Source: an uncultured Candidatus Saccharibacteria bacterium (GTDB lineage Bacteria > Patescibacteriota > Minisyncoccia > Phycocordibacterales > UBA9973). Taken from it: a stretch of DNA of 64,000 nucleotides. Below are positions 8,797-63,066 of the stretch, one piece after another; position 1 is the first letter of the stretch, and every line of letters starts with the position of its first letter. Position numbers and translations under genes: made by a program. Below the pieces are notes generated by a model, which was not told where the DNA came from, ran no database searches, and worked only from the letters and a program-made list of their open reading frames with translations. Where the stretch lies: assembly GCA_964440545.1 (NCBI GenBank), contig CAYTSO010000003.1:35184-99183 (forward strand), given 5' to 3'.

Positions 8797-10440
8797 ATGG
8801 AATCTAGAGAAATAAGGAAAAAGTTTTTAGAATTTTTTAAAAAAAGGGGACACAAAATAATTCCTTCGTCTTCTTTAATGCCGAGCGACCCTTCGGTGCT
8901 TTTTACTACAGCAGGCATGCAACAGTTTAAAACATATTACCTTAACCCTCAAAAAGCCGAAAAAGATTTTGGTAATAAAAACATCGTTACGGTGCAAAAA
9001 TGCATACGCACTAGTGATATTGATGAAGTAGGAGATTCCACTCATTTGACGTTTTTTGAAATGCTTGGAAATTTTTCTTTTGGAGGTTATGGAAGAAAGG
9101 AGGCGATTGAATATGCCCATGATTTCATCACCAAGGAAATGAATTTGAATATCTCTTATGTTACTGTTTATGAAGGAAGCGAAAATGTTTCTCGAGACAC
9201 GGATTCGGCAAAATACTGGAAGGATTTAGGTATCAAAAATATTAAGGAAGAAGGAGCTGATGTTTTTTGGGGGCCAACAGGAGATTCGGGTCCTTGTGGT
9301 CCAACTACAGAAATTTATTGCAAAAATGCCGACGGTGATGATGTTGAAATTTGGAATATAGTTTTTAATGAATATTTTTGTGACGGATCACGCGAGGAAT
9401 TAGATAAAGGTAATGCTAATTTAAAAAAATTAAATGTTTTAGGAATTGATACAGGGATGGGCCTTGAGCGACTGCTGGCAATATCGCAAAAGAAAAAAAA
9501 TGTATATGAGACGGATCTGTTTGGTGATGAAAAAACAAAAAAAGAACGAATTGTCGCTGACCATGTAAAAGCTGCCCTCTTTGTGATTTCCGACGGCGTA
9601 ATTCCTTCGAACACTGGAGCTGGTTATGTTCTCCGAAGATTAATTAGAAGAGCAGTCAGGTTTTCTGATCGTCCATTAGCTCAGGAAATTGAAAAAATAA
9701 AAAAAATTTATAAAGACGTATACAAGCTTGAAGATGGGGGAGAAATAGAAAAAGAAGAGGGCAAATTCAGACAGACCCTGCAAAACGGATTAAAAGAATT
9801 TGAGAAGGGAGTGGATCCATTTATTTTAGCAACTACTTATGGTTTTCCCGTTGAGCTTACTGTCGAGCTAGCCAAGGAAAAAGGACGAGTAGTTGATTTG
9901 GAAGATTTTAATAAAAAAATGACAGAACACCAAAAGCTTTCTCATACTGCTTCAGCCGGGATGTTTAAAGGAGGACTTGCTAATTACGAAGAAAAAACAA
10001 TTAAATTGCATACCGCGCATCACTTGCTTCTTGCTGGGCTGAAAGAAATTGTTGATAAAAATATTAAACAAAGGGGAAGCAATATTACCGAAGAACGATT
10101 GCGGATAGATTTTCTTTGTGATCACAAATTATCTGATGAAGAGAAAAAGAAAGTAGAGAACTGGGTGAATGAGAAAATAAATGAAGGGCTTAGTGTTGTA
10201 CGCCGGGAAATGTCTTTGACGGAAGCAGAAAAAATTGGAGCTGAAATGGAATTTGGGGCAAAATACCCAGACAAAGTATCCGTTTATTTTATAGAAGGCA
10301 AGGAAGGGAACGTTATTTCCAAAGAATTTTGTGGCGGGCCCCACGTGTCCAACACTAAAGAAATAGGACAGATTAGAATCCAAAAGGAAGAAGCGGTTGC
10401 TCGAGGAATTAGGCGCATCAAAGCAGTGCTTGTGTTATAA
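8797..10440 (+). CDS. alaS: alanine--tRNA ligase, compact form lacking C-Ala domain
   Basis: FTTAGMQQFK, DTGMGLERL, ADHVKAALFVISDG..GYVLRRLIRRA and the editing-domain motifs HTAHHLL and CGGPHV. At 547 aa it is about 300 aa shorter than canonical AlaRS. Confidence 0.85.
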   Translation: MESREIRKKFLEFFKKRGHKIIPSSSLMPSDPSVLFTTAGMQQFKTYYLNPQKAEKDFGNKNIVTVQKCIRTSDIDEVGDSTHLTFFEMLGNFSFGGYGRKEAIEYAHDFITKEMNLNISYVTVYEGSENVSRDTDSAKYWKDLGIKNIKEEGADVFWGPTGDSGPCGPTTEIYCKNADGDDVEIWNIVFNEYFCDGSREELDKGNANLKKLNVLGIDTGMGLERLLAISQKKKNVYETDLFGDEKTKKERIVADHVKAALFVISDGVIPSNTGAGYVLRRLIRRAVRFSDRPLAQEIEKIKKIYKDVYKLEDGGEIEKEEGKFRQTLQNGLKEFEKGVDPFILATTYGFPVELTVELAKEKGRVVDLEDFNKKMTEHQKLSHTASAGMFKGGLANYEEKTIKLHTAHHLLLAGLKEIVDKNIKQRGSNITEERLRIDFLCDHKLSDEEKKKVENWVNEKINEGLSVVRREMSLTEAEKIGAEMEFGAKYPDKVSVYFIEGKEGNVISKEFCGGPHVSNTKEIGQIRIQKEEAVARGIRRIKAVLVL

Positions 10441-11677: not shown

Positions 11678-12962
11678 ACGCATAGAGGATATGGTGCCTG
11701 CCAGGCATAAAAAGAAATTATTTGTTAAAAATAATATTGAAAAACAAAAAACTCAAAAAAAATTGGGAATAAAAAAGACGGAAGCTATTTATGGAGAAAA
11801 TCAGTCTAGACGCCTGCTTTGGTCTCTGGCTTTTGTTTCTGTGGTCTTTTGTTTTTTTGCAATTTCTTTTTTGTTTTCCCGAGCAGAGATTACCGTTTTT
11901 CCCAAAACAACAGAGATTGAATTAAGGCAAAATTTGTTTGCCAGCAAGGAGGCAAACAATGGCAATCTGGACTTTCGTCTAATGGTTGTTTCGGATGAGG
12001 AAGTAAAGACAATACAAGCAACAGAAGAAAAAGACGTTGAAATAAGGGCCACCGGGGCTGTTATAATTTTTAACTCTTTTAGTTCTTCACCTCAAACCCT
12101 GAGTATAGATACAAGGCTGGAAGGATCTAATAGAAAAATCTATAAAACGCAAGAAAAAATCATTGTGCCCGGAATGGGCGCAGACGGTACACCAGGGAAA
12201 GCGAAAGTAGTTATTTATGCAGCAGAAGCAGGAGAAGAATATAACAGTGGTCCGCTCGATTTTACCATTTTGGGTTTTAAGGATACTCCAAAATATTCAA
12301 AAATTATAGGAAGATCTGAAACCGGAACCGAAATAACAGGAGGGTTTAAGGGAAGGGCTCCTGCGGTCTCTGAAGAGGAAAAAGCAAAAGCAACCGAAGC
12401 ACTAAAAAAGGGTCTCCGGGAAAAATTATTAATGAAATCGGCTGATTACCCCGATAATTTTATTTTGTTTAAAGATGCAATCTTTATAAACATGGATGAT
12501 TCAAACATAACGACATATTACAATGAAGACAAAAGCATGACAATGAAAATTAAAGGAACACTCTATGGATTTCTTTTTAATGAACAAAAATTGATAGAAA
12601 AAATTGCAAAAAACAATGTTGAAAAATACGATGGAAGCGATATTTATATATCAAATATAAAAGATCTAATATTTTCTTTGTCTCCACAGACCGGATCTAC
12701 AAATAATGATATTTCTTTTGGAGATATTCAGGATATCAATTTTAATTTATCAGGGACGGCAAAAATAGTTTGGAAACTTGACGAGGATAAATTTATGGCT
12801 GATTTGCTGGGTAGGTCAAAAAAAGATTTTGATCAAATTTTATCAGAATATAAAAATATTGATTCTGCTCATTTAAAATTAAGGCCAATGTGGAGAATGT
12901 CTATTCCAGACAAGATTAATGATATAAACATCACAGTAAATTATCCAGAGAACTATAAATAA
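11670..12962 (+). CDS. single-pass membrane protein, unknown function
   Basis: N-terminal TM helix (LLWSLAFVSVVFCFFAISFLF) and a ~350-aa extracytoplasmic region. 8-nt overlap with the upstream FtsA-like gene suggests an operon. Confidence 0.5.
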   Translation: MSKRIEDMVPARHKKKLFVKNNIEKQKTQKKLGIKKTEAIYGENQSRRLLWSLAFVSVVFCFFAISFLFSRAEITVFPKTTEIELRQNLFASKEANNGNLDFRLMVVSDEEVKTIQATEEKDVEIRATGAVIIFNSFSSSPQTLSIDTRLEGSNRKIYKTQEKIIVPGMGADGTPGKAKVVIYAAEAGEEYNSGPLDFTILGFKDTPKYSKIIGRSETGTEITGGFKGRAPAVSEEEKAKATEALKKGLREKLLMKSADYPDNFILFKDAIFINMDDSNITTYYNEDKSMTMKIKGTLYGFLFNEQKLIEKIAKNNVEKYDGSDIYISNIKDLIFSLSPQTGSTNNDISFGDIQDINFNLSGTAKIVWKLDEDKFMADLLGRSKKDFDQILSEYKNIDSAHLKLRPMWRMSIPDKINDINITVNYPENYK

Positions 12963-18441: not shown

Positions 18442-18987
18442 TCATTTTCCAAAAGTTTCAAATAAAAACTTTTTAGTTTCTTCGTCTACGAATTGAGAGA
18501 CGATTATCATCATCTCAGCGCCCAATCCCAAATCTTTTTTTATATTTACAAACAAATGCTCATAGGGGAATGGAGAAATCCAAGCAGAATTTTTTAAACA
18601 GACAAAGCCGGCTTTTTTTAATAAATAACGTAATGACTCGCGTTCGTTTTTTCTGCTCTCTGGAACATCCAATAAAATAATTCGCCAATAACCATCCCAG
18701 GAAATATTTGCTAAAGTTGTCTCATTTTCTAGCTTGAGAGTATTGATTTTTTTTCTTCCTTCCTTGGTAAGCCTGGCATATTCATTTTGAGGGGAAGAAA
18801 TGTTTTCAATTAGCCCAGCCTCTCTAAGTCCTTTTAAAGAGCGCGTGATGGCGTATTTGTCGTTTTTAGAACACTCCTGGGAGTTTATCTTATTTGTGAG
18901 TTCTGGTAGGGAAATTGCTGGTTTTTCGCTTAATATTTTCAATATTTTTTTAGAATATTGATTATTTTTTAGTAATTTTCTTGACAT
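18442..18987 (-). CDS. PaaX-like winged-helix transcriptional regulator (Cas2/VapD-fold C-terminal domain)
   Basis: N-terminal wHTH (ILKILSEKPAISLPEL), then WDGYWRIILLDVPESRKNERESLRYLLKKAGFVCLKNSAWISP, matching the PaaX_C W-x-G-x-W...SVW consensus. Divergent to dnaK. Confidence 0.5.
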   Translation of the reverse strand: MSRKLLKNNQYSKKILKILSEKPAISLPELTNKINSQECSKNDKYAITRSLKGLREAGLIENISSPQNEYARLTKEGRKKINTLKLENETTLANISWDGYWRIILLDVPESRKNERESLRYLLKKAGFVCLKNSAWISPFPYEHLFVNIKKDLGLGAEMMIIVSQFVDEETKKFLFETFGK

Positions 18988-21056: not shown

Positions 21057-23135
21057 ATGGATCTTCCAGAAATACCTAGAAATAAAGATATAACTTATCT
21101 TGGGCTTACAACTTTTCGCGACAAAAATCAGCTTTTTGGTATTAAGCGCAAGGATCGACGTCAACACGTTTACGTGCTTGGAAAATCCGGAACCGGTAAA
21201 TCCGTACTCCTTTTCAATATGATTACCCAAAACATTCAAAACGGGGAAGGGGTTTGCGTGGTTGATCCTCATGGCGAACTTGTAGAAAGTGTCCTTTCTT
21301 CAGTGCCGGAAAATAGAGTAAAAGATGTTATTTATTTTAATCCAGCCGACACCGATTATCATGTTGGTTTTAATGTTTTAGAACTCATTGATCCTCAATA
21401 CAAACATCTAGTGGCTTCAGGTTTGATGGCAATTTTTACTAAAATTTGGGCGAATGCCTGGAGCGCTCGTATGGAATATATTTTAAATAATTGTATCTTG
21501 GCTTTACTGGATACCCCTGGAACCACCTTGCTTGGTATTCCGCGTATGTTGGTGGACAAAGATTATCGCCAGAAAATTATTACCAACTTGAAAGATCCTG
21601 TTATTAAAGCATTCTGGGTGCATGAATATGAGGCCTGGCAAGAAAAATTCCGTAATGAAGCCATTGCACCAATTCAAAACAAAGTTGGACAATTTCTCTC
21701 TACCTCAATCATTCGAAATGTCGTTGGTCAAACCAAGAGCACAATCAATATTTTTGACATAATGAATGAGGGAAAGATATTTTTGGTAAATGTCTCCAAG
21801 GGGCGCATTGGCGAAGACAATTCCGCGCTTTTGGGTGGAATGATTATTACTAAGATTCAATTGGCAGCAATGGAGCGCGTGCGTATTCCAGAAGAAGAAC
21901 GAAAAGATTTTTATTTATATGTAGACGAATTTCAAAATTTCGTAACAGATGCTTTTGCTGGCATTTTGTCTGAAGCTCGAAAATATCGACTAAATCTTAC
22001 TGTCGCGCATCAATATACCGCCCAGCTTGTTTCTGATAAAAGCTCAGCTGTGCGAGATGCGGTTTTCGGGAACGTTGGAACAATGATCGTTTTTCGGGTT
22101 GGCTCTGATGATGCCGCTTTTCTGGAACAAGAATTTGATCCTGAATTTACTCCGTCGGATATAGTGAATTTGCCGAACTATAAGATTTACCTGAAGCTAA
22201 TGATAGACGGGGTGACCTCCAGGCCATTTTCAGCGAAAACCTTGCCCCCGATGACTAAGGCAGATAATAAAAAAGTAGCTGAAGAAGTTATTAGATCCTC
22301 TAGGGATCTTTATTGCAGGCCTAAAGATGTAATTGAAAGGGAAATCAATGAATGGAGCGGTATGTCCTTAGGAGATGACAATATTTCTTCTTTTGGCGGG
22401 ATGGAAAAATTCAAAATTATTTGTTCGCTCTGCGGGCTGGAAAAGACAGTTCCGTTCAAGCCAGAGCCAGGCAGATCAGTTTATTGTAGGGAATGCATTG
22501 CAAAAATAAAATCAGGTGAAGTTAAGATAAAGAAGGGAGGGGATGATCAGTTTAAATACGATGAGTCTACTTTTTTCAAGCCCTTGGCTGATTTGGGTAT
22601 TGAGTTTGACCAGAAGAGAGTTGAAAAAAATAGAGAAATAAATAAAGGGAAAAAAATAATACAAGACACTAAACCGATTGCTCCAACGAGCAGGCCTGGC
22701 GTGTTTGGAGCCATTAAAAAAGCATTTATTAAAAAAGAGAAGCCAAAAGTAGTTTCTGGGGACGGAAAAAATTTAGCATTAAAGGAAGCTCTGAATAAGG
22801 TGATTCCAAAAGAAACAATCTCAGAGCCATCACCGAAACATGCTTCGCTAGATATTCTTAAAAAACAGACAGAAGGGGTAGACAAAAATATTTCAACAAA
22901 TAAGCCTATACATACTGGTGGGGATCGTGCCGCTAGTTTAGAGGAAATGAATAAATTGAAAGATTTGATTTCTACTGCTGTCGCGGGGCAAGCAGAAAAA
23001 ACCCCCAACCAGAGCAAGTTCGGTACGGGGCAGGCAGAGAAGAAAGAAATTCCGCCTTCTGCGCCGACTCAAAAAGAGACAGGTAAACCCAAGGAAGTGC
23101 CAGAGGATGTTCTAAAAAAGATTTTAGAAGGGTGA
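21057..23135 (+). CDS. soluble TraG/VirD4/TraD-like (type IV coupling-protein family) P-loop ATPase with C-terminal zinc ribbon and K/E-rich tail (paralog 1)
   Basis: Walker A VLGKSGTGKS, VVDPHGEL, Walker [10 protein letters not shown], and a TraG-D_C-like SEARKYRLNLTVAHQYTAQL...FGNVGTMIVFRVGSDDA segment. No N-terminal TM helices. C-terminal CSLCG...CRECI zinc ribbon. Confidence 0.65.
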   Translation: MDLPEIPRNKDITYLGLTTFRDKNQLFGIKRKDRRQHVYVLGKSGTGKSVLLFNMITQNIQNGEGVCVVDPHGELVESVLSSVPENRVKDVIYFNPADTDYHVGFNVLELIDPQYKHLVASGLMAIFTKIWANAWSARMEYILNNCILALLDTPGTTLLGIPRMLVDKDYRQKIITNLKDPVIKAFWVHEYEAWQEKFRNEAIAPIQNKVGQFLSTSIIRNVVGQTKSTINIFDIMNEGKIFLVNVSKGRIGEDNSALLGGMIITKIQLAAMERVRIPEEERKDFYLYVDEFQNFVTDAFAGILSEARKYRLNLTVAHQYTAQLVSDKSSAVRDAVFGNVGTMIVFRVGSDDAAFLEQEFDPEFTPSDIVNLPNYKIYLKLMIDGVTSRPFSAKTLPPMTKADNKKVAEEVIRSSRDLYCRPKDVIEREINEWSGMSLGDDNISSFGGMEKFKIICSLCGLEKTVPFKPEPGRSVYCRECIAKIKSGEVKIKKGGDDQFKYDESTFFKPLADLGIEFDQKRVEKNREINKGKKIIQDTKPIAPTSRPGVFGAIKKAFIKKEKPKVVSGDGKNLALKEALNKVIPKETISEPSPKHASLDILKKQTEGVDKNISTNKPIHTGGDRAASLEEMNKLKDLISTAVAGQAEKTPNQSKFGTGQAEKKEIPPSAPTQKETGKPKEVPEDVLKKILEG

Positions 23136-25654: not shown

Positions 25655-27160
25655 ATGTCTAAGCCGAATCGAGTGCAAATAATAAAATATGCTCCACCTC
25701 CGCCAGAATTGCCTGTGTATGGAAAAGTAAAGCCGGAAGAGGTATCCTTTTTCGGACGTACAAATTACGTGGCTTCCTTGGAAGAAAAAAAATTTATTTT
25801 CGGAATCAAGCGAGTTGATCGTCGTAGGCATCTTTATATAATCGGAAAATCAGGGGTTGGAAAAACTAAACTACTAGAACTGCTCTTGCGTCAAGATATC
25901 ACTTATAATCACGGCTTATGCTTGATAGACCCACACGGAGACGTGATAGATGCAATGCTTGATTATATCCCCAAGGAAAGAGCAGAAGACGTTTGCATAA
26001 TTGATCCTTCAGACGTAAATTTTCCAGCTTCCTTTAATCCATTGGCAAACGTGGATCCAATGTTTAAGTTTCAATTAACCCAAGGATTGATTGAGGTATT
26101 CCAAAAGCAATTCGGGGCGAACTGGACACCTCGTCTTGAGCACGTTTTTCGTTTTACTTGTTTAGCTCTTTTGGATTATCCACATGCCACGATGCGGGGA
26201 ATGATTTCAATGTTAACGGATAGAAATTATAGACAAAAAGTTGTGGAATATATTACAGACGACATGGTTAAAAGATTCTTCGCTATTGAATTCGCGGATT
26301 GGTCAGAAAAATTTGATACCGATGCCATCATTCCATTGGTAAATAAACTGGGTCAATTCCTTTCGGATCCATTACTTCGAAATATTTTTGGACAAAAAGA
26401 AAATAAAATTGATATGAGCAAGCTGATGAATGAAGGAAAAATCATCCTTATTAATCTTTCTAAGGGTCGTCTGGGTGAAGAGAACTCTTCCTTTCTCGGT
26501 TCCATGTTTTTAACAAAAATAAAACAAGCTGGAATGGAGCGAGCCGCTATCCCAGAAAAAGATCGAGTAGATTTTTACCTTTACGTGGATGAGTTTCAAA
26601 ACGTAGTGACTCAAACTTTTGAAAATATTTTGTCAGAAGCTAGAAAGTATGGATTGAATTTAACTATTGCTCATCAATATGTCGGCCAAATAATTACCAA
26701 GGTTCATCAGGCAGTGTTGGGTAATTGCGGAAGTATTATCACCTTCAGGGTAGGTGGGGAGGATGCAGTAAAAATGAAACCAGAATTTGCTCCTATCTTC
26801 GACGTGAAGGATATGATAAATCTTGCAGTTGGAGAAATTTATGTAAAAATGACAATAGATGGAGAATCTTATGATCCATTTTCTGCGGAAACGCTCAGGG
26901 TGCTTCCCCCTACACATTCTTCTTGTAGAGAAGAAATTATCGAAGCTTCACGCAGGAAATACTCAATATCCAAAGATTCGGCGGCAAAACTTATCGCCGA
27001 GGAAGAAGCCTCAATTATTCGAAGTGCCGAGGAAAAAGCTATTATTGAAGGAAAAAAGAAAGGAAAGGCTAAATCCAGTGAAACTGGAACGCCCGGCGCT
27101 TCTGAGGAAACGCTTAGGGAAGAAGAAAAAACTTCACAAGAAGCTGAACCTATGATATAA
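25655..27160 (+). CDS. soluble TraG/VirD4/TraD-like P-loop ATPase (paralog 2, no zinc ribbon, acidic tail)
   Basis: Same architecture as 21057..23135: [47 protein letters not shown]...[16 protein letters not shown]. Roughly 45-50% identical to paralog 1 by eye. Confidence 0.65.
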
Positions 27161-33961: not shown

Positions 33962-34288
33962 ATGAAGAAAGAGGAATTTGCAGTAATACATACAGGCGGA
34001 AAACAATATAAAGTCTCTGAAGGAGGCGTTGTTTCTATTGAGAAAATAAAAGGCGAATTCAAAAAAGGAGATAAATTGTCTTTCGATAAAGTCATGCTAG
34101 TGGATGATGGCAAGGATACAACTATCGGTACCCCTTATATTAAAGGAGCAAAAGTAGAAGGGGAGTTAATAGAAATCGGACGATCTAAAAAAGTACTGGT
34201 GGTAAAATACAAACAAAAATCTCGTTATCTAAAACGCAACGGCCACCGTCAACCGTTTTTCAAAGTAAAAATTAGCTCGATAAAATAA
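33962..34288 (+). CDS. rplU: 50S ribosomal protein L21
   Basis: FAVIHTGGKQYKVSEGGVVSIEKI...KVLVVKYKQKSRYLKRNGHRQPFFKVKI. Confidence 0.9.
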   Translation: MKKEEFAVIHTGGKQYKVSEGGVVSIEKIKGEFKKGDKLSFDKVMLVDDGKDTTIGTPYIKGAKVEGELIEIGRSKKVLVVKYKQKSRYLKRNGHRQPFFKVKISSIK

Positions 34289-34290
34289 AA

Positions 34291-34316
34291 AATCCCGTTT
34301 GACGGGATTTTTTATT
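34291..34316 (+). terminator. intrinsic terminator after rplU
   Basis: AATCCCG-TTTG-ACGGGATT hairpin followed by a T-run. Confidence 0.6.
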
Positions 34317-34410
34317 TGTGTTTGCATTTTGCATGTTTTTGTATAGTATAAAATTTGGTGGACAAAAATTGCCCTTTGACATATGTGCAAACCCCAGAAA
34401 GGAGTTGACC

Positions 34411-35832
34411 ATGCCAAATCTAATGCTTCCGGGGAACCCCCGGTACCAACCGAAGGAACTTCAAGCGTTCTTCGGCTACGACAGATTGTTTGAGGCTGTC
34501 GCTAGTGTCGAGATCGCGACCATGCAAACCTTGGCCGAGATCGGTATCATCCCTGCGGCGGACATCACCGTGCTTACTTCGGTGATCAAAGAAGAACTTT
34601 TTGCTATCTCGACGAGCGAAGTTGACGAGCTTGAGCGGAGAGTAACCAAGCACGACATCCGCGCTTGGGTGCGAATTGCCCAGGGCAAAATGGAGCCCGG
34701 GCTTCGTCGGTGGGTCCACGTGCCGCTGACGAGCTACGACGCACTCGACACTGCTCGTGCGGTGCAGTTCGTGCAAGCTCACAACAATGTGGTGAAGAGA
34801 TTCACAAACAAAGTGATCAGTCACTTTGTGGATCAGGTCTACCGTTTTGCTGACCAACCGCAGATTGGCCGAACACACGGCCAGCACGCCCTTCCTATCA
34901 CGGTCGGATTCTGGTTCGCAACAATTTTGAACCGGATTCTCTCCAACATCCAAGCGGCCAACGCTGCTGCGGAAAAACTGGTCGGGAAGATCTCAGGAGC
35001 CGTGGGCGTGTATAACGCTCAGGTTGGTCTTGGTATTTTGGCTCGTTGCGGAAGCAAAACCTTCGAGGAGCGTGTGCTCGAGAAGCTCGGCCTTAAGCCC
35101 GCGCCGATCAGCACGCAGATTCTCCCTCCGGAGCCACTCGCGGACTACTTGTTTGCTTGTGTTAAGCTCTCTGCTACGTTCGGTCAGTTCGGACTCGATG
35201 GACGGCATCTTATGCGTACCGAGATTGCCGAACTCGGGGAACCTTTCGAGTCGGGTCAGGTTGGTTCTTCGACCATGGCCCACAAACGAAACCCTATCAA
35301 CTTTGAAAACTTGGAGGGAACCTGGAAGAAGAACAAGGCTGAGTTCTACAAGGTGCTCGAGTGCATGACGAGCGAGCACCAGCGGGACTTGGTTGGTAGT
35401 TCAATCACTCGCGATTTCCCGACGATCGTCGTGAACGTCGTCAACCAGCTGAATACTCTGCTTCGAGAAGCGGGAGGCAAACCGTTTATCTCTCGCATCT
35501 CGGTCGACAAGGCTGCTTGTGAGCGGAACCTCAAAGCTCAGGGCGATGCTATTCTTGCAGAGCCGATTTACATTGCTCTTCAAATGGCTGGTTATGAAGG
35601 CGATGCTCATGAGCTCGTGAACCATGTGGCTTTGCCGTACGCGAAGAAACACAACATGTTGTTGCTTGCGGCGACGCGCCAAGTGCTTTCGGATTGCAAC
35701 AGCATCGTTTGGAAAAACATTCCGAGTGACACTGTTCAGATGCTTGAGGATTCCGAGCGCTACACCGGCAACGCGGCAGAAAAGGCGTACGAAATCGCCA
35801 AAGCCGCCGAAGCGTATCTCAAGACGAAGTAG
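34411..35832 (+). CDS. purB: adenylosuccinate lyase (class II fumarate-lyase family), high-GC
   Basis: GSSTMAHKRNPINFEN lyase signature with PurB-type NP(I/V)(D/N)FEN. AAAGGAG RBS 7 nt before the ATG at 34411. GC content is far above the flanks. The track ORF start at 34318 is an artefactual extension. Confidence 0.85.
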   Translation: MPNLMLPGNPRYQPKELQAFFGYDRLFEAVASVEIATMQTLAEIGIIPAADITVLTSVIKEELFAISTSEVDELERRVTKHDIRAWVRIAQGKMEPGLRRWVHVPLTSYDALDTARAVQFVQAHNNVVKRFTNKVISHFVDQVYRFADQPQIGRTHGQHALPITVGFWFATILNRILSNIQAANAAAEKLVGKISGAVGVYNAQVGLGILARCGSKTFEERVLEKLGLKPAPISTQILPPEPLADYLFACVKLSATFGQFGLDGRHLMRTEIAELGEPFESGQVGSSTMAHKRNPINFENLEGTWKKNKAEFYKVLECMTSEHQRDLVGSSITRDFPTIVVNVVNQLNTLLREAGGKPFISRISVDKAACERNLKAQGDAILAEPIYIALQMAGYEGDAHELVNHVALPYAKKHNMLLLAATRQVLSDCNSIVWKNIPSDTVQMLEDSERYTGNAAEKAYEIAKAAEAYLKTK

Positions 35833-35850
35833 TAGAAACATCACAAACTC

Positions 35851-35880
35851 AAAAGGAGGGGCTTCGGCCTCTCCTTTTTA
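35851..35880. terminator. bidirectional intrinsic terminator between purB and recR
   Basis: AAAA-GGAGGGGC-TTCG-GCCTCTCC-TTTTT, with an A-run and T-run on either side. Confidence 0.6.
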
Positions 35881-36489
35881 CTGTCTATTTTTTAGGGCGT
35901 TTTTGAGAGTGTCATTGTCGGAATATTCTAATTCAGTGCCGGTAGAGAGACCTTTACCGAGGGAAGAAATTTTTATGTCCGACTTTTCGCAAAGGCTTTT
36001 TAATTGTTCTCGTACGTATGCATCAGTATGGTCGCCCTGTGGACTGATAGAAAAAGCTAAAATTATTTCCTTCAATTCTTTTTCACGCTCAATTTTCTTT
36101 TTTAATTCTTCAATTCGTACTCGACTTCTGGTGTTTTTTTCAACAATCGGGACCAGTCCACCCAGAACAAAATATTTTCCATGATAGGCGTGACTCTTTT
36201 TTACGCTTTCTAAATCAGAATCTTTTTCTACTACCATCAACACAGAGGAATCAGTGTGTTGATTCGCGCAAATCTCACAGACTTTTTCTTTTTTGGAATT
36301 TAAAATAAAGAATCGATAACATTCCTTGCATTGCGCTGTTTCTTTTTTTAGTTCAGAAATCAAGGAAGATAAATTTTCACCATAGGCGGGAGTTTTGGCC
36401 ATTAAAAAATAGACAAAACGTCGCGCTTGTCGTTCTCCGATACCCGGGAATTCCTTAAAAATTTCTGTTAGTTTATCTATGATGTCCAT
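35878..36489 (-). CDS. recR: recombination protein RecR
   Basis: FPGIGERQARRFVYFL (HhH), a C4 zinc finger (CKEC...CEIC) and a Toprim domain. Confidence 0.9.
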   Translation of the reverse strand: MDIIDKLTEIFKEFPGIGERQARRFVYFLMAKTPAYGENLSSLISELKKETAQCKECYRFFILNSKKEKVCEICANQHTDSSVLMVVEKDSDLESVKKSHAYHGKYFVLGGLVPIVEKNTRSRVRIEELKKKIEREKELKEIILAFSISPQGDHTDAYVREQLKSLCEKSDIKISSLGKGLSTGTELEYSDNDTLKNALKNRQ

Positions 36490-36491
36490 AT

Positions 36492-37898
36492 TTAAAATTC
36501 ATCCAATTCTCCACCGATTTTTGACGGAGCAAATTCGCTCAAGCTACTTTTTTCAAGGTTAAGGAAGGTGGTAGTTTTTTCGTCGAAGTAGAGTTCAATT
36601 TTTCCAGTCGGACCGTTGCGGTGTTTTTCGATTAAAATTTCGGCAATGTTGGTCCTCTCAGATTCATCCTTACCCTTGTCTTCGCGGTGAATAAACATTA
36701 CTACGTCAGCGTCTTGTTCTATAGAACCTGAATCTCGAAGATCAGAAAGGCGAGGTTTGCCACCGCGGGATTCCACAGCACGAGAAAGCTGGGAGAGAGC
36801 GAGAACAGGCACATCGAGCTCCTTTGCGAGACTTTTTAGTGACCTCGAGATTTCTGTCACCTGATTTACCATTGAGTCGTAATTTTTTGAGGTAGTCATA
36901 AGTTGTAAATAGTCCACGACGACAAGGTCAAGTCCTTTTTCTGCTTTTATTCTACGAGCGAGAGCCTTCATGCGAACGATGGAATTGCCAGGTTGGTCAT
37001 CGATATAAATTTTTGCTTTAGCGAGTTTATCTAGGGAATCTCGAAGTAAAGAAAAATCACGGTCAGAAGAAAGACGGCCAGTACGCAAGTTCCAAGCATT
37101 AACACGTGATTCTGCGGAGAGCATGCGGTCAACGAGTTGTTGTGAAGACATTTCTAAAGAAAATACCAAAATAGATTTTTCATGAATTACTCCGGCCATG
37201 CGAGCGATGTCGAGGGCAAGTGTGGTTTTACCCATTGATGGTCTTGCAGCAAGAATAATCAAATCAGAATTCTGTAAACCGGAGAGCATTGTGTCTAATT
37301 CTTTGAAACCAGTCGGTAGTCCACGAAGCATCCCTTTGTTCTCATGCAATTTTTCTAAACGCTCATAAGCCTCTGGCAAGGCGTCCTTAAGGTTTACAAA
37401 TTTTTGATTTTTCGGAGAAGAAACAACGCTAAAGACTTTTTTCTCTGCTAAATCTAAAATATCATCCATGTGATCATCTCCTTCCTCAAAGGCGAGCTCG
37501 GAAACATAGTCTGCTGCTTCGATTAGACTACGAAGTACATATTTTTTTTGCACAATATCGGCATAATGTTTGACGTTCGTGGAGGAGGGAACTACATTTA
37601 CAATCTCCGCGAGATATTGATTGCCCCCTACGCTTTCGAGTAATTTTTTTTCCTTGAGTTTTGTCGACAAGGAAAGCATATCTATTGGTTCGTTTTTTAC
37701 AGAGAGGTCAAGCATTGCTTGAAAAATTTTCTTATGCTTTTCGGCATAGAAAGAATCAGGGCTGACCATGTCTTCCACTTCGTGCATAGCATCTTTTCGG
37801 AGCATAATGGATCCGAGCACGGCTTGCTCAGAAGGGATACTTTGAGGAGGAATGCGCAAATCGCTTTTTTTATAACCGCTCTTGTTTGTCTTTACCAT
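36492..37898 (-). CDS. dnaB: replicative DNA helicase DnaB
   Basis: N-terminal domain (PPQSIPSEQAVLGSIM), Walker A ARPSMGKTTLAL, Walker B VVVDYLQLM and SQLSR. Confidence 0.95.
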   Translation of the reverse strand: MVKTNKSGYKKSDLRIPPQSIPSEQAVLGSIMLRKDAMHEVEDMVSPDSFYAEKHKKIFQAMLDLSVKNEPIDMLSLSTKLKEKKLLESVGGNQYLAEIVNVVPSSTNVKHYADIVQKKYVLRSLIEAADYVSELAFEEGDDHMDDILDLAEKKVFSVVSSPKNQKFVNLKDALPEAYERLEKLHENKGMLRGLPTGFKELDTMLSGLQNSDLIILAARPSMGKTTLALDIARMAGVIHEKSILVFSLEMSSQQLVDRMLSAESRVNAWNLRTGRLSSDRDFSLLRDSLDKLAKAKIYIDDQPGNSIVRMKALARRIKAEKGLDLVVVDYLQLMTTSKNYDSMVNQVTEISRSLKSLAKELDVPVLALSQLSRAVESRGGKPRLSDLRDSGSIEQDADVVMFIHREDKGKDESERTNIAEILIEKHRNGPTGKIELYFDEKTTTFLNLEKSSLSEFAPSKIGGELDEF

Positions 37899-57249: not shown

Positions 57250-57600
57250 AAGGGGGCCCGAAGGCCCCCGTGGTGATGGTTTTGCGTGGCTGAGATTCCG
57301 GTGGCCACGCGGTTGATGAGACAGTTGCCCAGCTTACGACGGCCCCAGCGTCGTGCCGGGCGGGTTTGTGGCCCCTACTCGGAGGGGCACGACGGTTGCC
57401 GCTCTTGGCGAGCTTTTGGCCGGCCGTAGCGGCCTTGACGGCGTGGACCCCGGCAGCGGCCAAGGCGGCGAACTTTCCTCCCACCCGAGCTGTGTCCTCG
57501 GTGTAGGGGCAGAACGCGACCTCACAAGCGATTGCCGGAAGGTCCGGGACAAACATGAACAATTCTACCCTCCTTTCCTTTGAATTAAAAAATGTACGTT
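57250..57600 (-). other. unclassified GC-rich (about 60-65%) structured element, probably a minus-strand transcript from a promoter at 57610..57638 to a terminator at 57254..57271
   Basis: Sharp GC jump in a roughly 35% GC genome. Multiple hairpins (CCGGACCTTCCGG, ACGACG-N7-CGTCGT, CGTGGC-N13-GCCACG). Promoter and terminator flank it. Confidence 0.4.
57254..57271 (-). terminator. intrinsic terminator (minus strand)
   Basis: GGGGGCC-UUCG-GGCCCCC followed by UUUCAUUUU on the minus strand. Confidence 0.5.
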
Positions 57601-58054: not shown

Positions 58055-58462
58055 ATGTCTAATTTAAATACATTAAAACCTTTTCAATCAGGATTTGATT
58101 CGAGAAGAAATACAAAAGGAAGACCTAAAGGTGTTCGTAATATGAAAACAATTTTGTCTCAAAAATTGATGCAATATGTTGGTGAAGGTAAAAACAAAAC
58201 TCAACTTCAAGATGTTTTGATAAATAGGATTATTGATAAAGCTCTCAAAGGAGATAGGAAAATGATTCAGCTTATTTGGGAATATATGGATGGTAAGCCA
58301 CCAAAATGGAAAGGTGATCCTGTCCTTCAATCAAAAAGATATACGGAAAAGAAGACGGAAATTTCACCAGAAGATGAAGCTAAAATACAAGAATTATTTG
58401 GATCAAGACCAATCAACCCTACCCAAGAATCTCGACCCGATTCCAAGGTGTCTGTAACTTAA
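58055..58462 (+). CDS. hypothetical basic protein (mobile-element associated)
   Basis: 135 aa with N-terminal RRNTKGRPKGVRN. No further motif. Confidence 0.4.
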   Translation: MSNLNTLKPFQSGFDSRRNTKGRPKGVRNMKTILSQKLMQYVGEGKNKTQLQDVLINRIIDKALKGDRKMIQLIWEYMDGKPPKWKGDPVLQSKRYTEKKTEISPEDEAKIQELFGSRPINPTQESRPDSKVSVT

Positions 58463-58644
58463 CTTCCTTTTGAGAAAATGTGTAGAGGGAGTTATCCACT
58501 TAACACAAAGACCCTTTTAATAGGGTCTTTGTTGAGTAGGTGTGTATTTTGATCGCTATCGGGCGTGCAATTCTGGAAAACTGAATTCTGCTGATCGTAT
58601 CAAGTCCTCAAGCTCTATCGACTTTATCACTTTTCTCATTCAAC

Positions 58645-58830
58645 CTAATTTGTTTCATCTACAACAGTTGCGTCCTTAGCATTTAACTTTGTCCACTCGA
58701 TTGAATATTTTGCATCTGTTTTGTTGATGTAACTTTCACTACTCTTTGCAATAATCTTTCCGTTTTTATCAGATTTTAAAATCCAATAAAATTGACCAGA
58801 TATTGTCTTCTGAAGTTTAAATTTTGCCAT
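58645..58830 (-). CDS. YegP-like (DUF1508/UPF0339) small protein
   Basis: MAKFKLQKTISGQFYWILKSDKNGKIIAKSSESYINKTDAKYSIEW matches the YegP repeat pattern (G.F.F.LKA.NGE.IA.SE.Y). Confidence 0.55.
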   Translation of the reverse strand: MAKFKLQKTISGQFYWILKSDKNGKIIAKSSESYINKTDAKYSIEWTKLNAKDATVVDETN

Positions 58831-59026
58831 ACAAAAATAAAATTTAATTTACTAATAATATCGACCTGATAAAGAACGACCTTTCCTTATCATAACTCTT
58901 ATATAAATCGAGGTCAGGTAAATTTTTTCTAAAATTTGTTAATCAAATGTGGATAAGTTTGCCTAGACTTTCGGTTTTTATTCGGTTATAATACAAATGT
59001 AGCAAATTTAAGCATCTATAGCAAAT

Positions 59027-60604
59027 ATGACTAATATCACAAAAAAACAAAAACAAGTTTTTGACTTCATAAACAGCTATAGAGCTGAGAATGGCATTTC
59101 CCCTACCATAGAAGAAATACGAAAAAAACTTAAACTCAAAGCAGTATCTACTATCCACGAACATATTAAATCACTTCAAGACAAAGGGTATCTATCGAAG
59201 AGTGATAATTCTCCAAGAAGTATTGAGCCGACAAAGACAATTCGATCTGTTATTGATATTCCTGTTTTGGGAACTATTGCAGCTGGTCAACCAATCGAAG
59301 CAATAGAAAATTCTCAAGACACAATATCAATAATTAATCCTACGATTAAATCTTCTCAAGGTTATTACGCTTTAAGAGTTGCCGGAGATAGTATGATAGA
59401 AGAAGGTATATTTGATGGAGATATTGTTATCATTAAAAAACAATCAGTCGCGGAAAACGGACAAACTGTAGTTGCCATCATAGACGACAACGAAGCTACC
59501 CTTAAAAAGCTTTATCGCGAAAAATCTCGTTTTAGATTAGAACCAAGAAATCAAAACATGCTACCTTTTTTCAGAAAAGAAGTTGAGGTAAGAGGTGTTG
59601 TTGTTCAAGTAATTAGAAATATCAATAATCAAGAAATAGCAACTGTTTCAAAAAAAACTAAACATGGATTTAAAACCATTGACCTATTTGCAGGTGTAGG
59701 AGGTATCAGACTAGGCTTTGAAAAAGCTGGTTTTGAGACCGTCTTTGCAAATGATTTTGAAAAGCAATGTAAAGAAACATATGATTTAAACTTTCCAACT
59801 TCCAAACTAGTCATTGAAGATATAAGGCAAGTAGGAATTGAAGATTTACCTCAATTTGATTTTCTACTTGGGGGTTTTCCCTGCCAAGCATTTTCTATCG
59901 CAGGATACAGACAAGGTTTCAAAGATGAAAAAGGGCGTGGAAACTTATTTTTTGATATTGCCAGGATTATCGACGCAAGAAAGCCGGCTGGATTTCTATT
60001 AGAAAACGTAAAAAATCTAAAGAGCCACGATGGCGGTAAGACCTTCAAAATAATTGAACAAACATTAACAGATCTTGGATATCACATTAAAACCAAAGTA
60101 TTAAACAGTATGGAATATGGAAATATTCCCCAAAACAGAGAGCGTATCTACATAGTGGGCTTTAGAGATAAAAACTATACGGATAAATTTGAATTTCCTG
60201 ACCCAATAAAATTGAATGTTAAAATTACTGATTTACTCGAAAAGAATGTTCCAGAGAAATATTATTACAATGGTAAACCTCTTTTTGAAAAATTAAAAGA
60301 TTTTGTAAAAGAAGAAGGAAAAGTTTATCAGTGGCGAAGACAATATGTGAGAGAAAACAAGAAAGGTGTATGTCCTACCCTTACTGCAAACATGGGCATG
60401 GGCGGACACAACGTTCCTATCATAAAAGACAAAAAAGGTATAAGAAAGTTAACTCCTTTAGAGTGTTTTAGAATTCAGGGATTTCCTAAAAATTATACGT
60501 TACCTAAAATAGCCGACTCTGCTTTATATAAACAAGCTGGAAACTCTGTTAGTGTACCTGTTATTGAGGCGGTAGCAAAAAGGATGATGGTCGCTATGGA
60601 ATAA
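59027..60604 (+). CDS. fusion protein: full-length LexA-type repressor (HTH + S24 autopeptidase) fused to DNA (cytosine-5)-methyltransferase
   Basis: Residues 1 to about 205: LTKKQKQVFDFI..EEIRKKLKL.STIHEHIKSLQDKGYL (LexA wHTH), Ala-Gly cleavage site in IAAGQPIEA, VAGDSMIEEGI (catalytic Ser), TVVAIIDDNEATLKKL (catalytic Lys). Residues about 215-525: DLFAGVGG (motif I), GGFPCQAFS (IV), LLENVKNL (VI), QNRERIYIVG (VIII), QAGNSVSVPV (X). Single uninterrupted ORF. Confidence 0.8.
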   Translation: MTNITKKQKQVFDFINSYRAENGISPTIEEIRKKLKLKAVSTIHEHIKSLQDKGYLSKSDNSPRSIEPTKTIRSVIDIPVLGTIAAGQPIEAIENSQDTISIINPTIKSSQGYYALRVAGDSMIEEGIFDGDIVIIKKQSVAENGQTVVAIIDDNEATLKKLYREKSRFRLEPRNQNMLPFFRKEVEVRGVVVQVIRNINNQEIATVSKKTKHGFKTIDLFAGVGGIRLGFEKAGFETVFANDFEKQCKETYDLNFPTSKLVIEDIRQVGIEDLPQFDFLLGGFPCQAFSIAGYRQGFKDEKGRGNLFFDIARIIDARKPAGFLLENVKNLKSHDGGKTFKIIEQTLTDLGYHIKTKVLNSMEYGNIPQNRERIYIVGFRDKNYTDKFEFPDPIKLNVKITDLLEKNVPEKYYYNGKPLFEKLKDFVKEEGKVYQWRRQYVRENKKGVCPTLTANMGMGGHNVPIIKDKKGIRKLTPLECFRIQGFPKNYTLPKIADSALYKQAGNSVSVPVIEAVAKRMMVAME

Positions 60605-60605
60605 G

Positions 60606-61649
60606 TTATTTGTTGTAAACTTTATCAAAAGCCTTAATCATTTTGTCTGTAGAATCTTTTGCAAATACTTCAAAAGAATTTTTCACCGCCAAGTTCTCAT
60701 CCCAGTTTGAACTTCTATCAAATTGAGCTAACTCAATTTTAATAAAACCTGGCAACATTTTCTGATTATTAATTGATAGTGTTTTATCTGTCTTCAAGAA
60801 TACTGACCCTTTATTTTCTTTTACAATAAAGGTGCTTTTTGTATCGCCCTCTATAGAAATTGGTAAATAAATATCACTGCCATTTTCATATATAAATTTA
60901 CTATTTAAAAATTTTATCTTTTTTGGATCTTGTGGCTTAGTAACTTTATCTACATTAGAAACACTCTTCACATATCTTGGGCTAACTTTCGGTTTACAAG
61001 AAACTGTATTCTCTAAAATTTGATCTTTTGTATAAGTACCAATTAATCTGAAGCTACCCACAATCTCAGCCTTCTCAGGTTTAACTGGAGAAATAATACT
61101 AGAATTTTTATCTGATTTTATAAATATAGGATCCGCTTTAAGTAACTCAGCATTTTTTTCATTAAAAACTTCATCTTCAAATATCATAGTTAAATAATCA
61201 GGAGAAAGGTCCGATTCTACAAAAACATAATAATCATCAATCATTTGAGGTTGTCTAATGCCTAAAAGATATTGATCTTTACGTAAAGCTTTTACTTCAA
61301 CTCTTGGACTATTACCGACCGTTTCCCATCGTCCATCATTATACTGAACAAAAGGAATAGTCTTTTTGTTATCTTTGATACCTATAATATCTGGTGCATT
61401 CTTTTCAGACTCATTGTTATATAGAAAATAGTCTGGCACCGCTTTATATGGTTTGTCTTGTAAAAGACTATCAAAAACCGCTGTCTCAGCTAATTTATTT
61501 AACCATCTTTCAATAAAACCACCGACAAGATCTCTCTTTGAAGATGTTCCTTGCATGTGTAAAGAATCAGAACTATATTTCATTAATATAAAATATATAG
61601 TTCTTATTAACTCCTCTTTTGTTATTTCGATTTTTGGATATTTACTCAC
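60606..61649 (-). CDS. candidate type II restriction endonuclease (PD-(D/E)xK) partner of the methyltransferase
   Basis: Convergent, 1-nt gap to the MTase gene. Possible ..APDIIGIK..(27)..RVEVKALRK PD...E.K motif. No other homology recognised. Confidence 0.35.
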   Translation of the reverse strand: MSKYPKIEITKEELIRTIYFILMKYSSDSLHMQGTSSKRDLVGGFIERWLNKLAETAVFDSLLQDKPYKAVPDYFLYNNESEKNAPDIIGIKDNKKTIPFVQYNDGRWETVGNSPRVEVKALRKDQYLLGIRQPQMIDDYYVFVESDLSPDYLTMIFEDEVFNEKNAELLKADPIFIKSDKNSSIISPVKPEKAEIVGSFRLIGTYTKDQILENTVSCKPKVSPRYVKSVSNVDKVTKPQDPKKIKFLNSKFIYENGSDIYLPISIEGDTKSTFIVKENKGSVFLKTDKTLSINNQKMLPGFIKIELAQFDRSSNWDENLAVKNSFEVFAKDSTDKMIKAFDKVYNK

Positions 61650-61749
61650 AATATCTCAAGAATATCTGAAAATTGACTAAAAATCAATTTTACTGCATGG
61701 AATATAGACTCATCTGGACTTCGTCCCTCCATCCGGTATGTTCGTGTAT

Positions 61750-63066
61750 ATGGAGAATATAGCCATACAGAATCAATATTTTCACACCAACATCACGGAA
61801 CAGGAACCTCTCAGATATTGTTTATATGCTCGAAAATCAAGTGAGGCAGAAGAAAAACAAGCTCTTTCTATAGATTCACAAATCAAAGAAATGCTCTTGA
61901 TTGCTCAAAGAGAAAATCTGAATATTGTTGATATGTATCGAGAATCACATTCAGCAAAAGATTGTGGGCAAAGACCTGTATTCAATCAATTGTTGACTGA
62001 TATTCGCGAAGGTAAATTTAATGGAATATTAGTGTGGCATCCTGACAGACTTTCAAGAAATGCTGGGGACTTGGGAGCCGTTGTAGATTTACTCGATCAA
62101 AAGAAACTTATAGAGATCCGAACATACAGTCAAAAATTTACTAACAATCCGAATGAAAAGTTTCTTCTGATGATTCTTGGTTCGCAAGCAAAACTTGAAA
62201 ATGATAACAAGAGTATTAATGTGAAGCGTGGGCTAAAAACAAAATGCGAGATGGGGCTATGGCCAAGTGTTGCACCAACCGGATATTTAAATTCAAAAAA
62301 TAAAGATCAAAAAGGAACTGTATTCATTGACCCTGTACGAGCACCAATTATTAAACAAATGTTTGAGAAGGTATCTAATGAGGGTTGGAGTGGTAGAAAA
62401 TTATTTAGATGGTTAAAAGATATACGATTTGTAACAAGAACAGGAAAATATCTAACACTGAGTAATGTATATGTAATATTGAATAATCATTTTTATTATG
62501 GATCTTTTGAATATCCAAAGAATAGTGGTCGATGGTTTCAAGGTAAACACGTGCCAATAATTTCAAAAGATTTATTTGATGCAGTACAAAAGCATTTAAA
62601 ACTACAGATCAAAGTCCATTCCAAAAATAAGGAATTTGCTTTCACTAAACTTCTCTCTTGTGGAGTATGTGGCTCTGGTGTTACCGCTCAAGAAAAATAC
62701 AAAAACCTCAAAGATGGATCAATAAACAAATATATTTATTACGGTTGTACAAGAGCAAAAGATATTAATTGCAAAGAAGGATATATTGAAGAAAAAGTTT
62801 TGATTGCACAATTACTTGTAATTATTGATCGAATTGACTTAGACAGGTCAGGTATAAAGAAAAAACTAGAAGCAGAAATTGAGCGTCACAAAAAATTCCA
62901 CTCGGGTATTATGGGAAAATCTGAGGAGGAATATCATGCAAAAGATGCAGATATCAGGAACTACGCAAAATACTTATTGAATGAAGGATCGATGTTTGAG
63001 AAGAGAGATTTGTTGACGTGCTTGAAAAGTAAGATAAGTTTGAAGGATAAAAAAATTATTTTGTAA
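61750..63066 (+). CDS. large serine recombinase (resolvase/invertase catalytic domain + recombinase domain + zinc ribbon)
   Basis: YARKSSEAEEKQALSIDSQ (catalytic Ser in Y-x-R-x-S-S), a large recombinase domain, and CGVCGS...YYGCTRAK zinc ribbon. The track ORF starts 61738. ATG at 61750 is equally plausible. Confidence 0.8.
   Translation: MENIAIQNQYFHTNITEQEPLRYCLYARKSSEAEEKQALSIDSQIKEMLLIAQRENLNIVDMYRESHSAKDCGQRPVFNQLLTDIREGKFNGILVWHPDRLSRNAGDLGAVVDLLDQKKLIEIRTYSQKFTNNPNEKFLLMILGSQAKLENDNKSINVKRGLKTKCEMGLWPSVAPTGYLNSKNKDQKGTVFIDPVRAPIIKQMFEKVSNEGWSGRKLFRWLKDIRFVTRTGKYLTLSNVYVILNNHFYYGSFEYPKNSGRWFQGKHVPIISKDLFDAVQKHLKLQIKVHSKNKEFAFTKLLSCGVCGSGVTAQEKYKNLKDGSINKYIYYGCTRAKDINCKEGYIEEKVLIAQLLVIIDRIDLDRSGIKKKLEAEIERHKKFHSGIMGKSEEEYHAKDADIRNYAKYLLNEGSMFEKRDLLTCLKSKISLKDKKIIL

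Follow-up and report, generated by a model that had tools for sequence, protein, structure and literature searches.

What brought a single GC-rich gene to a place between two core genes of a low-GC patescibacterial genome, and what kind of donor supplied it? The question is raised by a 64-kb stretch of contig CAYTSO010000003.1 (the window, with 57 open reading frames, ORFs), in which a gene for a PurB-like lyase separates rplU from recR. PurB is a fumarate-lyase-fold enzyme that removes fumarate from succinylaminoimidazole carboxamide ribotide (SAICAR) and from adenylosuccinate. Horizontal acquisition of the lyase gene is strongly supported, because of its composition, the polymorphism of the insertion, incongruence with the host and the lack of a fixed position among genomes. 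It is probable that a purine module from a GC-richer Patescibacterium was inserted between rplU and recR, and that purC-purE was later lost while purB was kept. The host is itself a Patescibacterium, as an earlier note on this DNA had assumed: the protein cluster of the sister locus L081 has Ca. Nomurabacteria GW2011_GWB1_40_7 among its members.

Composition sets the gene apart from the other 56 ORFs of the window. Its GC content is 0.540, against a mean of 0.367 (standard deviation 0.027, maximum 0.423; z = 6.5), and its GC content at third codon positions (GC3) is 0.639, against 0.310 ± 0.041 (z = 8.0). The corresponding scores at first and second positions are z = 3.1 (GC1) and z = 1.4 (GC2); third codon positions carry the shift, so codon usage and not amino-acid content lies behind it. 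The rise starts at about position 34380 and the fall is complete by about 35880, with no 1-kb bin elsewhere in the window above 0.47 GC, and long spurious overlapping ORFs of 62–186 amino acids lie inside the gene. Both the sharp GC jump and the long antisense ORFs had been described in the earlier note and are confirmed here. The windowed GC and codon-usage analysis that it had proposed was run, and composition and codon usage depart from the host as they do in genomic islands. The gene starts with ATG, six bases downstream of an AGGAG motif, and ends in a TAG TAG double stop.

The encoded protein matches Pfam Lyase_1 (PF00206) over residues 33–303, with 105.7 bits against a cut-off of 27 (E = 4e-30), and gives a sub-threshold match to ASL_C (PF08328) over residues 321–405 (27.5 bits against a cut-off of 35, E = 3.6e-6). 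TIGR00928 (purB) is the best NCBIfam model; the other Lyase_1 families in NCBIfam reach at most 162 bits and non-PurB enzymes at most 128 bits, and scores on the curated purB models NF006764 and NF006500 fall far under their cut-offs. The best PDB matches are the adenylosuccinate lyases (ASLs) of Bacillus subtilis and Thermotoga maritima (E = 1.8e-42 and 2.5e-39, respectively), at ~35% identity. The superfamily loop is present as GSSTMAHKRN at residues 285–294, with S286, S287, M289, K292 and N294 invariant in the family alignment. The earlier note had taken this motif to be diagnostic for ASL. We take G-S-x2-M-x2-K-x-N to be the PROSITE signature of the entire fumarate-lyase superfamily; since the signature is common to all its members, the motif alone does not identify an ASL and this part of the claim falls, while the assignment to a purB-like class II lyase stands on the Pfam, NCBIfam and PDB matches.

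To map active-site residues, the protein was aligned pairwise to the B. subtilis enzyme (1F1O) with HMMER, and conservation was judged in 25 homologs. Residues R4/Y5, H68, H89, T93/S94, H141 and Q212 of B. subtilis ASL correspond to R11/Y12, H81, H103, T107/S108, H156 and Q236 of the lyase, and S262/S263, K268, N270, E275, R301 and R310 to S286/S287, K292, N294, E299, R325 and R334. Each of them is invariant across the family or conserved to 90% or more; their catalytic and substrate-binding roles are presumed from the literature on the B. subtilis and T. maritima enzymes. Among the 123 family positions conserved at 95% or more, one is altered in the window lyase (P448S), and its branch is 1.4 times as long as that of the sister. 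The window copy is intact, and the gene is predicted to encode a functional PurB homolog from a divergent PurB clade.

The site at which the gene lies varies strongly between related genomes. When metagenomes were scanned with the terminal sequence of recR (3′ end), 12 related loci (L086–L097) were retrieved, and among them the gap between rplU and recR is hypervariable. It is empty in L088, L092 and L096, where 49 nt hold one hairpin; in L090 and L093 it contains a small low-GC ORF for a membrane peptide, in L097 a HIT-like (HIT-family) gene, and in L087, L094 and L095 a PaaX/Cas2-like gene together with a gene for a Cys-rich secreted protein, the cargo in these last four loci likewise being low in GC. 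L089 and L091 have the arrangement of the sister L081, and the order rplU, leader, lyase, hairpin, recR is the same, with alignable junctions, in L081, L082, L089 and L091. The site is thus polymorphic between conserved flanks, being empty, filled with other cargo or occupied by the lyase gene. Identity of DnaB to that of the window is 0.93–0.94 for L081 and L086 and 0.90 for the empty-site locus L092; L081 and L086 are therefore nearer to the window than L092, which fits a gain in the common ancestor of the window organism and L081. This synteny was recovered only through an exact look-up of the sister protein (P0002) and the DNA pattern of the recR end; a tblastn search of the window neighbours against 80 GTDB lyase loci detected no common context. 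As side observations, a homolog of one of the small L081 ORFs adjoins recR in L086, and the window itself encodes, at 18442–18987 on the minus strand, a PaaX_M protein (Cas2-like domain) with 27% identity (E = 2e-10) to the PaaX-like cargo gene of the L087 type.

Incongruence between gene and host points in the same direction. L083, a 672-kb contig of the Candidate Phyla Radiation (CPR) with purCE-purB-purH, encodes a lyase 77% identical to that of the window, whereas the housekeeping genes of a syntenic block (sigma-70-like, DUF8128, YceG, RNase T, MnmA) are 34–50% identical. At loci with an equal host distance (L020, L024, L057), the lyases are just 56–62% identical to the window protein. 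A neighbour-joining tree (Kimura distances, 100 bootstraps, 99 sequences over 472 columns) places the root of the family within CPR and pairs the window lyase with P0002 at 100%. The crown clade that contains this pair has 94% support, and 100% one node deeper, with Taylorbacteria-type CPR as successive outgroups. The closest relatives of the window lyase are from other Paceibacteria, and crown lyases of CPR have a GC content of 0.51–0.57 whatever the GC content of their host. They match the host only in genomes of ~48–49% GC, namely L083 and L084, where the module has a GC3 of 0.57–0.60 and its neighbours 0.45–0.59. The donor was most likely another CPR bacterium with a moderately higher GC content (~48–55%), not a member of a classical high-GC phylum.

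What such a donor may have contributed becomes apparent from the family at large. An exhaustive search of 1.84 billion representatives delimits a discrete clade, with full-length members at 333 bits or more and at least 42% identity; the next proteins outside it reach at most 253 bits and 39% identity, and canonical PurBs ~150 bits. A word-indexed search and the GTDB species representatives together gave 566 confirmed family stretches, 48–84% identical to the window protein. Named members are overwhelmingly Patescibacteria (Nomura-, Vogel-, Yanofsky-, Taylor-, Kaiser-, Adler-, Falkow-, Doudna- and Berkelbacteria, and others). Close relatives were sought in viral contigs and on plasmids, where identities do not exceed 32% and 30%, respectively, and carriage by phage or plasmid was rejected on these values. 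Flanking-ORF clustering over 81 loci, confirmed with Pfam, identified a PurC-PurE fusion as a recurrent neighbour in 24 loci, the formylglycinamide ribonucleotide (FGAM) synthase PurL in seven and PurH in five, and we therefore regard the members of the clade as the PurB enzymes that belong to a purine module of CPR. Conversion of SAICAR to aminoimidazole carboxamide ribotide (AICAR), the reaction predicted for them, is the step between their two commonest neighbours. Stages of the module can be recognized: L083 and L001 have purCE-purB-purH, L085 has purB-purCE, L084 has purB and a purH stump of 204 amino acids, and L004 and the window have purB alone. The stump (L084, 13504–14118; MGS and a portion of the AICARFT domain), situated in a host of ~48% GC at a distance of 2 kb from a lyase gene that is intact, is direct evidence of gene-by-gene decay of the module. 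Linkage to purine genes thus holds for the family and not for the window copy, which has no pur neighbour within the 64 kb.

The sister locus supplies the link between the module and the lone gene. In L081 and L082, a homologous leader, lyase and terminator occupy the same site between rplU and recR, and in L081 a purC-purE gene (GC3 0.62) is divergent from the lyase gene. Since the sister keeps purC-purE beside the lyase, the solitary purB of the window can be understood as a secondary loss, a remnant of a purCE-purB(-purH) module. The two lyases share 0.85 amino-acid identity, with a synonymous divergence (dS) of ~1.25, a nonsynonymous divergence (dN) of 0.10 and dN/dS of ~0.08; the flanking core genes are 58–93% identical and saturated in dS. 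An insertion shared with a sister at this dS is not recent. The earlier note had proposed a recent acquisition from a high-GC donor: the acquisition is upheld by the empty sites and the incongruence of L083, and neither the high-GC donor, given a clade rooted in CPR, nor the recent date, given the shared insertion, is. An F81-type decay from four-fold sites gives a rough estimate of ~0.53–0.71 for the ancestral GC content at these sites (GC4), compatible with crown values. A two-state amelioration estimate from NG86 dS was discarded, as it returned an impossible ancestral GC3.

From these comparisons, we infer the type of donor and an order of gain and loss. A copy of the purine module from a moderately GC-richer Patescibacterium (~48–55% GC, gene GC ~0.52–0.57) would have entered the hypervariable rplU–recR site in the ancestor of the window organism and its Nomurabacteria-like sister, after the split from the relatives with an empty site. 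The insert would be expressed from the AT-rich leader common to both lineages and end at the bidirectional hairpin used together with recR. The window lineage would then have lost purC-purE and kept purB alone under purifying selection, and the third positions of the lyase gene, having drifted only partly towards the 31% GC3 of the host, would account for the sharp GC step.

Several observations weigh against this history. The score on TIGR00928, 275.4 bits, lies below the equivalog cut-off of 326.2; no repeats flank the lyase in the window and no mobility gene lies beside it, the nearest recombinase gene (61738..63066) being 26 kb away; the crown of the tree is star-like inside, with supports below 55%; and four-fold-site identity above chance between window and sister is 0.37 for the lyase and 0.18 for pooled host genes, so that the copies may be younger than the genomes, for example after an exchange by recombination at a later time, or else constraint may act on their synonymous sites. 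With such a crown, the exact donor lineage and the direction of exchange with Alphaproteobacteria rest on context and composition, not on topology. The crown indeed also holds alphaproteobacterial sequences 75–78% identical to the window lyase, with a gene GC content of 0.59–0.70, among them one encoded on a 275-kb contig of an isolate, Bradyrhizobium sp. LTSP885, and the back-extrapolated ancestral GC4 of the window copy extends up to ~0.7. Direct acquisition from a classical high-GC bacterium, for instance a Bradyrhizobium-like alphaproteobacterium, is nevertheless quite unlikely. CPR sequences make up every successive outgroup of the crown (supports 94 and 100 for clades of 25 and 29 sequences), the alphaproteobacterial copies have a GC3 0.05 to 0.14 below that of their neighbours, and at the LTSP885 locus (L003), the only one from Alphaproteobacteria whose ORFs were inspected individually, the neighbours of the gene are TetR and aminotransferase genes. 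When flanking ORFs were clustered, the purC-purE and purH clusters contained no locus from Alphaproteobacteria; the sister and other crown CPR loci keep an adjacent CPR-type purC-purE, and some purH, of equally elevated GC. On account of this lower GC3, of the other neighbours at LTSP885 and in the clustering, and of the CPR-type purine genes kept at crown CPR loci, the Alphaproteobacteria look like recipients of a transfer from CPR. If, alternatively, the gene had been inherited vertically and its GC-rich codon usage actively maintained by selection on synonymous sites or mRNA, the higher four-fold conservation of the lyase would be expected, as would its GC3 excess across the family: over 71 loci, lyase GC3 exceeds the flank median by +0.077 (Mann–Whitney p = 7e-10 against ordinary flanking genes), and the excess is above 0.1 at 41% of loci, a level reached by 9% of ordinary flanking genes. 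The offset is positive where the host is low in GC and negative where it is high, with the window third largest of the 71. Such a dependence of its sign on host GC is what one would expect if a pool of genes were exchanged between hosts that differ in composition, and the negative offsets fit such a shared mobile pool and not a constraint that favours GC. Related genomes with empty or otherwise filled sites, the absence of a conserved gene position among CPR genomes, host-like copies in the low-GC genomes L029, L031, L033, L034, L044 and L063 (GC3 0.24–0.31) and the excess of lyase over housekeeping identity in L083 likewise make vertical inheritance very unlikely.

That a foreign GC-rich fragment was chimerically joined in assembly or binning could be argued from the sharpness of the boundaries only. 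The same gene order with homologous junctions recurs in independent assemblies from other samples (L081, L082, L089, L091), so the step is not a chimera; its boundaries moreover coincide with a ribosome-binding site (RBS) and a terminator, and the leader is AT-rich and host-like. We consider an artefact exceedingly improbable. A different matter is why purB alone has been kept. It could have been retained to work with a PurA encoded elsewhere, converting inosine monophosphate (IMP) to adenosine monophosphate (AMP) in salvage or in a purine-nucleotide cycle, instead of being a leftover of the module; AMP salvage with PurA was among the roles that the earlier note had considered most plausible. 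In systems that have been characterised PurB is bifunctional, it is purB that remains where purCE or purH is lost or truncated (window, L004, L084), and the gene is intact and under purifying selection. Against this, the P-loop of PurA (G[DS]EGKG) and the GIGP motif, sought in all six frames, occur neither in the window nor within 10 kb of the lyase in 80 loci, and a Pfam scan of the 57 window ORFs revealed no purine-metabolism domain, neither purA nor any other purine gene. The measured selection also mostly predates the loss of purCE, and the window branch is longer than that of the sister. We hold this retention for PurA to be possible, if somewhat unlikely. At present the enzyme could cleave SAICAR with a purC encoded elsewhere, cleave adenylosuccinate with a PurA encoded elsewhere, or be a relic.

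The features of the locus are collected in Table 1. Both terminators that the earlier note had placed around the gene, after rplU and at 35851..35880, are supported by RNA folding as strong hairpins. A- and T-runs lie on both sides of the downstream hairpin, which can therefore serve the lyase as well as the convergent recR gene. The window leader is homologous to the lyase leader of L081 and to a second L081 copy before unrelated cargo. A scan for consensus sigma-70 promoters did not call this conserved AT-rich element, and its promoter role is putative. Searches of the whole window with Rfam at the gathering threshold and with ARAGORN found no RNA element. A riboswitch in the leader was considered and is unlikely, as the leader folds no better than shuffled sequence (z = +0.41) and the same leader precedes unrelated cargo in L081.

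Table 1. Features of the lyase locus and its core flanks, in window coordinates.
Feature	Coordinates	Strand	Basis
rplU (ribosomal protein L21), left core flank	33962..34288	+	Pfam Ribosomal_L21p 4e-34; syntenic in L081, L087-L097
rplU terminator hairpin, 16-nt perfect arms, A-run and T-run	34283..34317	.	inverted repeat; RNA fold -18.1 kcal/mol, z = -6.9
AT-rich promoter-like lyase leader, including conserved TTGCaTTTT..TATAGT..GCCCTTTGACATA and RBS AGGAG (34400-34404)	34318..34410	+	homology to L081 leader
GC-rich coding sequence, 473 aa, predicted PurB-type adenylosuccinate/SAICAR lyase of CPR clade	34411..35832	+	composition, Pfam/NCBIfam, PDB ASL matches, CPR homologs
Catalytic-loop signature GSSTMAHKRNPINFEN (S286/S287, K292, N294, E299)	35263..35310	+	residues 285-300; aligns to GSSAMPHKRNPIGSEN of B. 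subtilis ASL
Bidirectional terminator, lyase and convergent recR	35851..35878	.	fold -19.3 (+) and -18.6 kcal/mol (-); z = -5.5 and -5.1; terminator scan
recR, right core flank	35878..36489	-	Pfam RecR and Toprim domains
dnaB, core gene for ranking genome relatedness	36492..37898	-	Pfam DnaB and DnaB_C; identity matrix

The corresponding site of the sister shows a more elaborate organization. Alongside the lyase gene and purC-purE, positions 7900–13800 of L081 (also found in L082, L089 and L091) contain a HepT/MNT toxin-antitoxin pair and two short ORFs rich in GC. Three direct repeats of the final 53 nt of recR lie at 11446, 12303 and 13061; there are two copies of the terminator hairpin (11423, 13039) and two of the lyase promoter-leader (9902–9970 and 12381–12445, the second copy before unrelated cargo), and no recombinase gene is evident in the ~10 kb on either side. 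The last ~53 nt of recR (35878–35925 in the window) are present once in the window and three times in L081 and L082. At the L081 site, cargo looks to have accreted at the recR 3′ end in the manner of cassettes. A bolder version of this idea, which we regard as unlikely, would make the gap between rplU and recR a dedicated cargo-capture site, in which genes are slotted between one resident leader (TTGCxTTTT..TATAGT..GCCCTTTGACATA) and one terminator, recR being regenerated by duplication of its last 53–70 nt. Cassettes would then accrete in tandem as in integrons, with no recombinase gene nearby, and purB would be one cassette from a pool of Patescibacteria purine modules that also reached Bradyrhizobium.

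The alphaproteobacterial copies form an observation of their own. A CPR-type PurB paralog, 75–78% identical, is found in Bradyrhizobium sp. LTSP885 (L003, 10001–11413) and in L005–L007, L011, L013, L015, L019 and L078, its hosts being Bradyrhizobium, Reyranellaceae and other Alphaproteobacteria. One 90%-identity cluster of this paralog (representative P0006) counts 315 member sequences.

Compared with known systems, the gene is an ordinary enzyme on an ordinary gene island, a textbook hot-spot insertion without visible mobility genes. Like canonical PurB (TIGR00928; 1F1O of B. subtilis, 1C3C/1C3U of T. maritima), the protein combines a Lyase_1 fold domain with a putative ASL C-terminal region, which scores below the Pfam threshold, and has the N-terminal R-Y, three histidines, the Ser-Ser loop with K/N/E, and the Gln and Arg ligands; in CPR relatives, the lyase gene also sits in a purine context, between purC and purH. 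Unlike canonical PurB, it is ~35% identical over the aligned part, scores 275 against 326 bits, belongs to a separate clade, has M-A-H in place of M-P-H in the loop and has no pur neighbours in the window. 3-carboxy-cis,cis-muconate cycloisomerase (PcaB), XcbD, nitrosuccinate lyase (CreD) and trans-aconitate decarboxylase share the superfamily fold and signature and give significant hidden Markov model and PDB matches, but their models score at most 128 bits against 275 for purB, and the relatives of the lyase lie in a context of purine synthesis, not of aromatic catabolism or coenzyme M synthesis. With atypical genomic islands at core-gene hot spots, the locus shares a deviating GC content and codon usage, presence/absence polymorphism, varied cargo and host incongruence. 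It differs from typical islands in that one metabolic gene makes up the whole of it and the window shows neither an integrase or transposase nor repeats around the gene, and in that the sister site has a triplicated recR 3′ end and a leader and terminator reused around different cargo.

It has been reported that 93% of Patescibacteria genomes lack nucleotide synthesis, with biosynthesis genes scattered across the phylogeny (bioRxiv 10.64898/2026.06.21.733656, a 2026 preprint), and that horizontal gene transfer takes place mostly among Patescibacteria (PMC12455944). The present observations suggest that late purine genes move between distant Patescibacteria as a purCE-purB-purH module, land in core-gene hot spots and decay singly, purB being the last survivor in several genomes. 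Such transfer and decay would help to explain the patchy occurrence of nucleotide-synthesis genes in the radiation, and it cautions against taking a lone purB as evidence of a salvage pathway. Less ordinary are two findings outside the window, the CPR-type purB paralog in Bradyrhizobium and the cassette-like array on duplicated recR ends.

Elsewhere in the window, a second GC spike was noted at 57250–57575, with ~300 nt at 63–71% GC (150-nt windows) in a genome of 36% GC. It has its own GC-rich hairpin (57250–57268) and lies just upstream of a gene for a DUF2914 membrane protein; no Rfam match (best E = 0.53), tRNA or tmRNA was found in it. Next to the spike, a cluster at 58055–63967 suggests an integrated mobile element or prophage remnant. 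Its genes encode a DUF5681 protein, a fusion of a LexA-S24 peptidase with a C5 cytosine DNA methylase (59027..60604), a ClpP-like SDH protease and a large serine recombinase (61738..63066). At 21057–23135 and 25655–27160, two TrwB/VirD4-like type IV coupling-protein homologs, one of them with a treble-clef zinc finger, surround an RNA methyltransferase gene.

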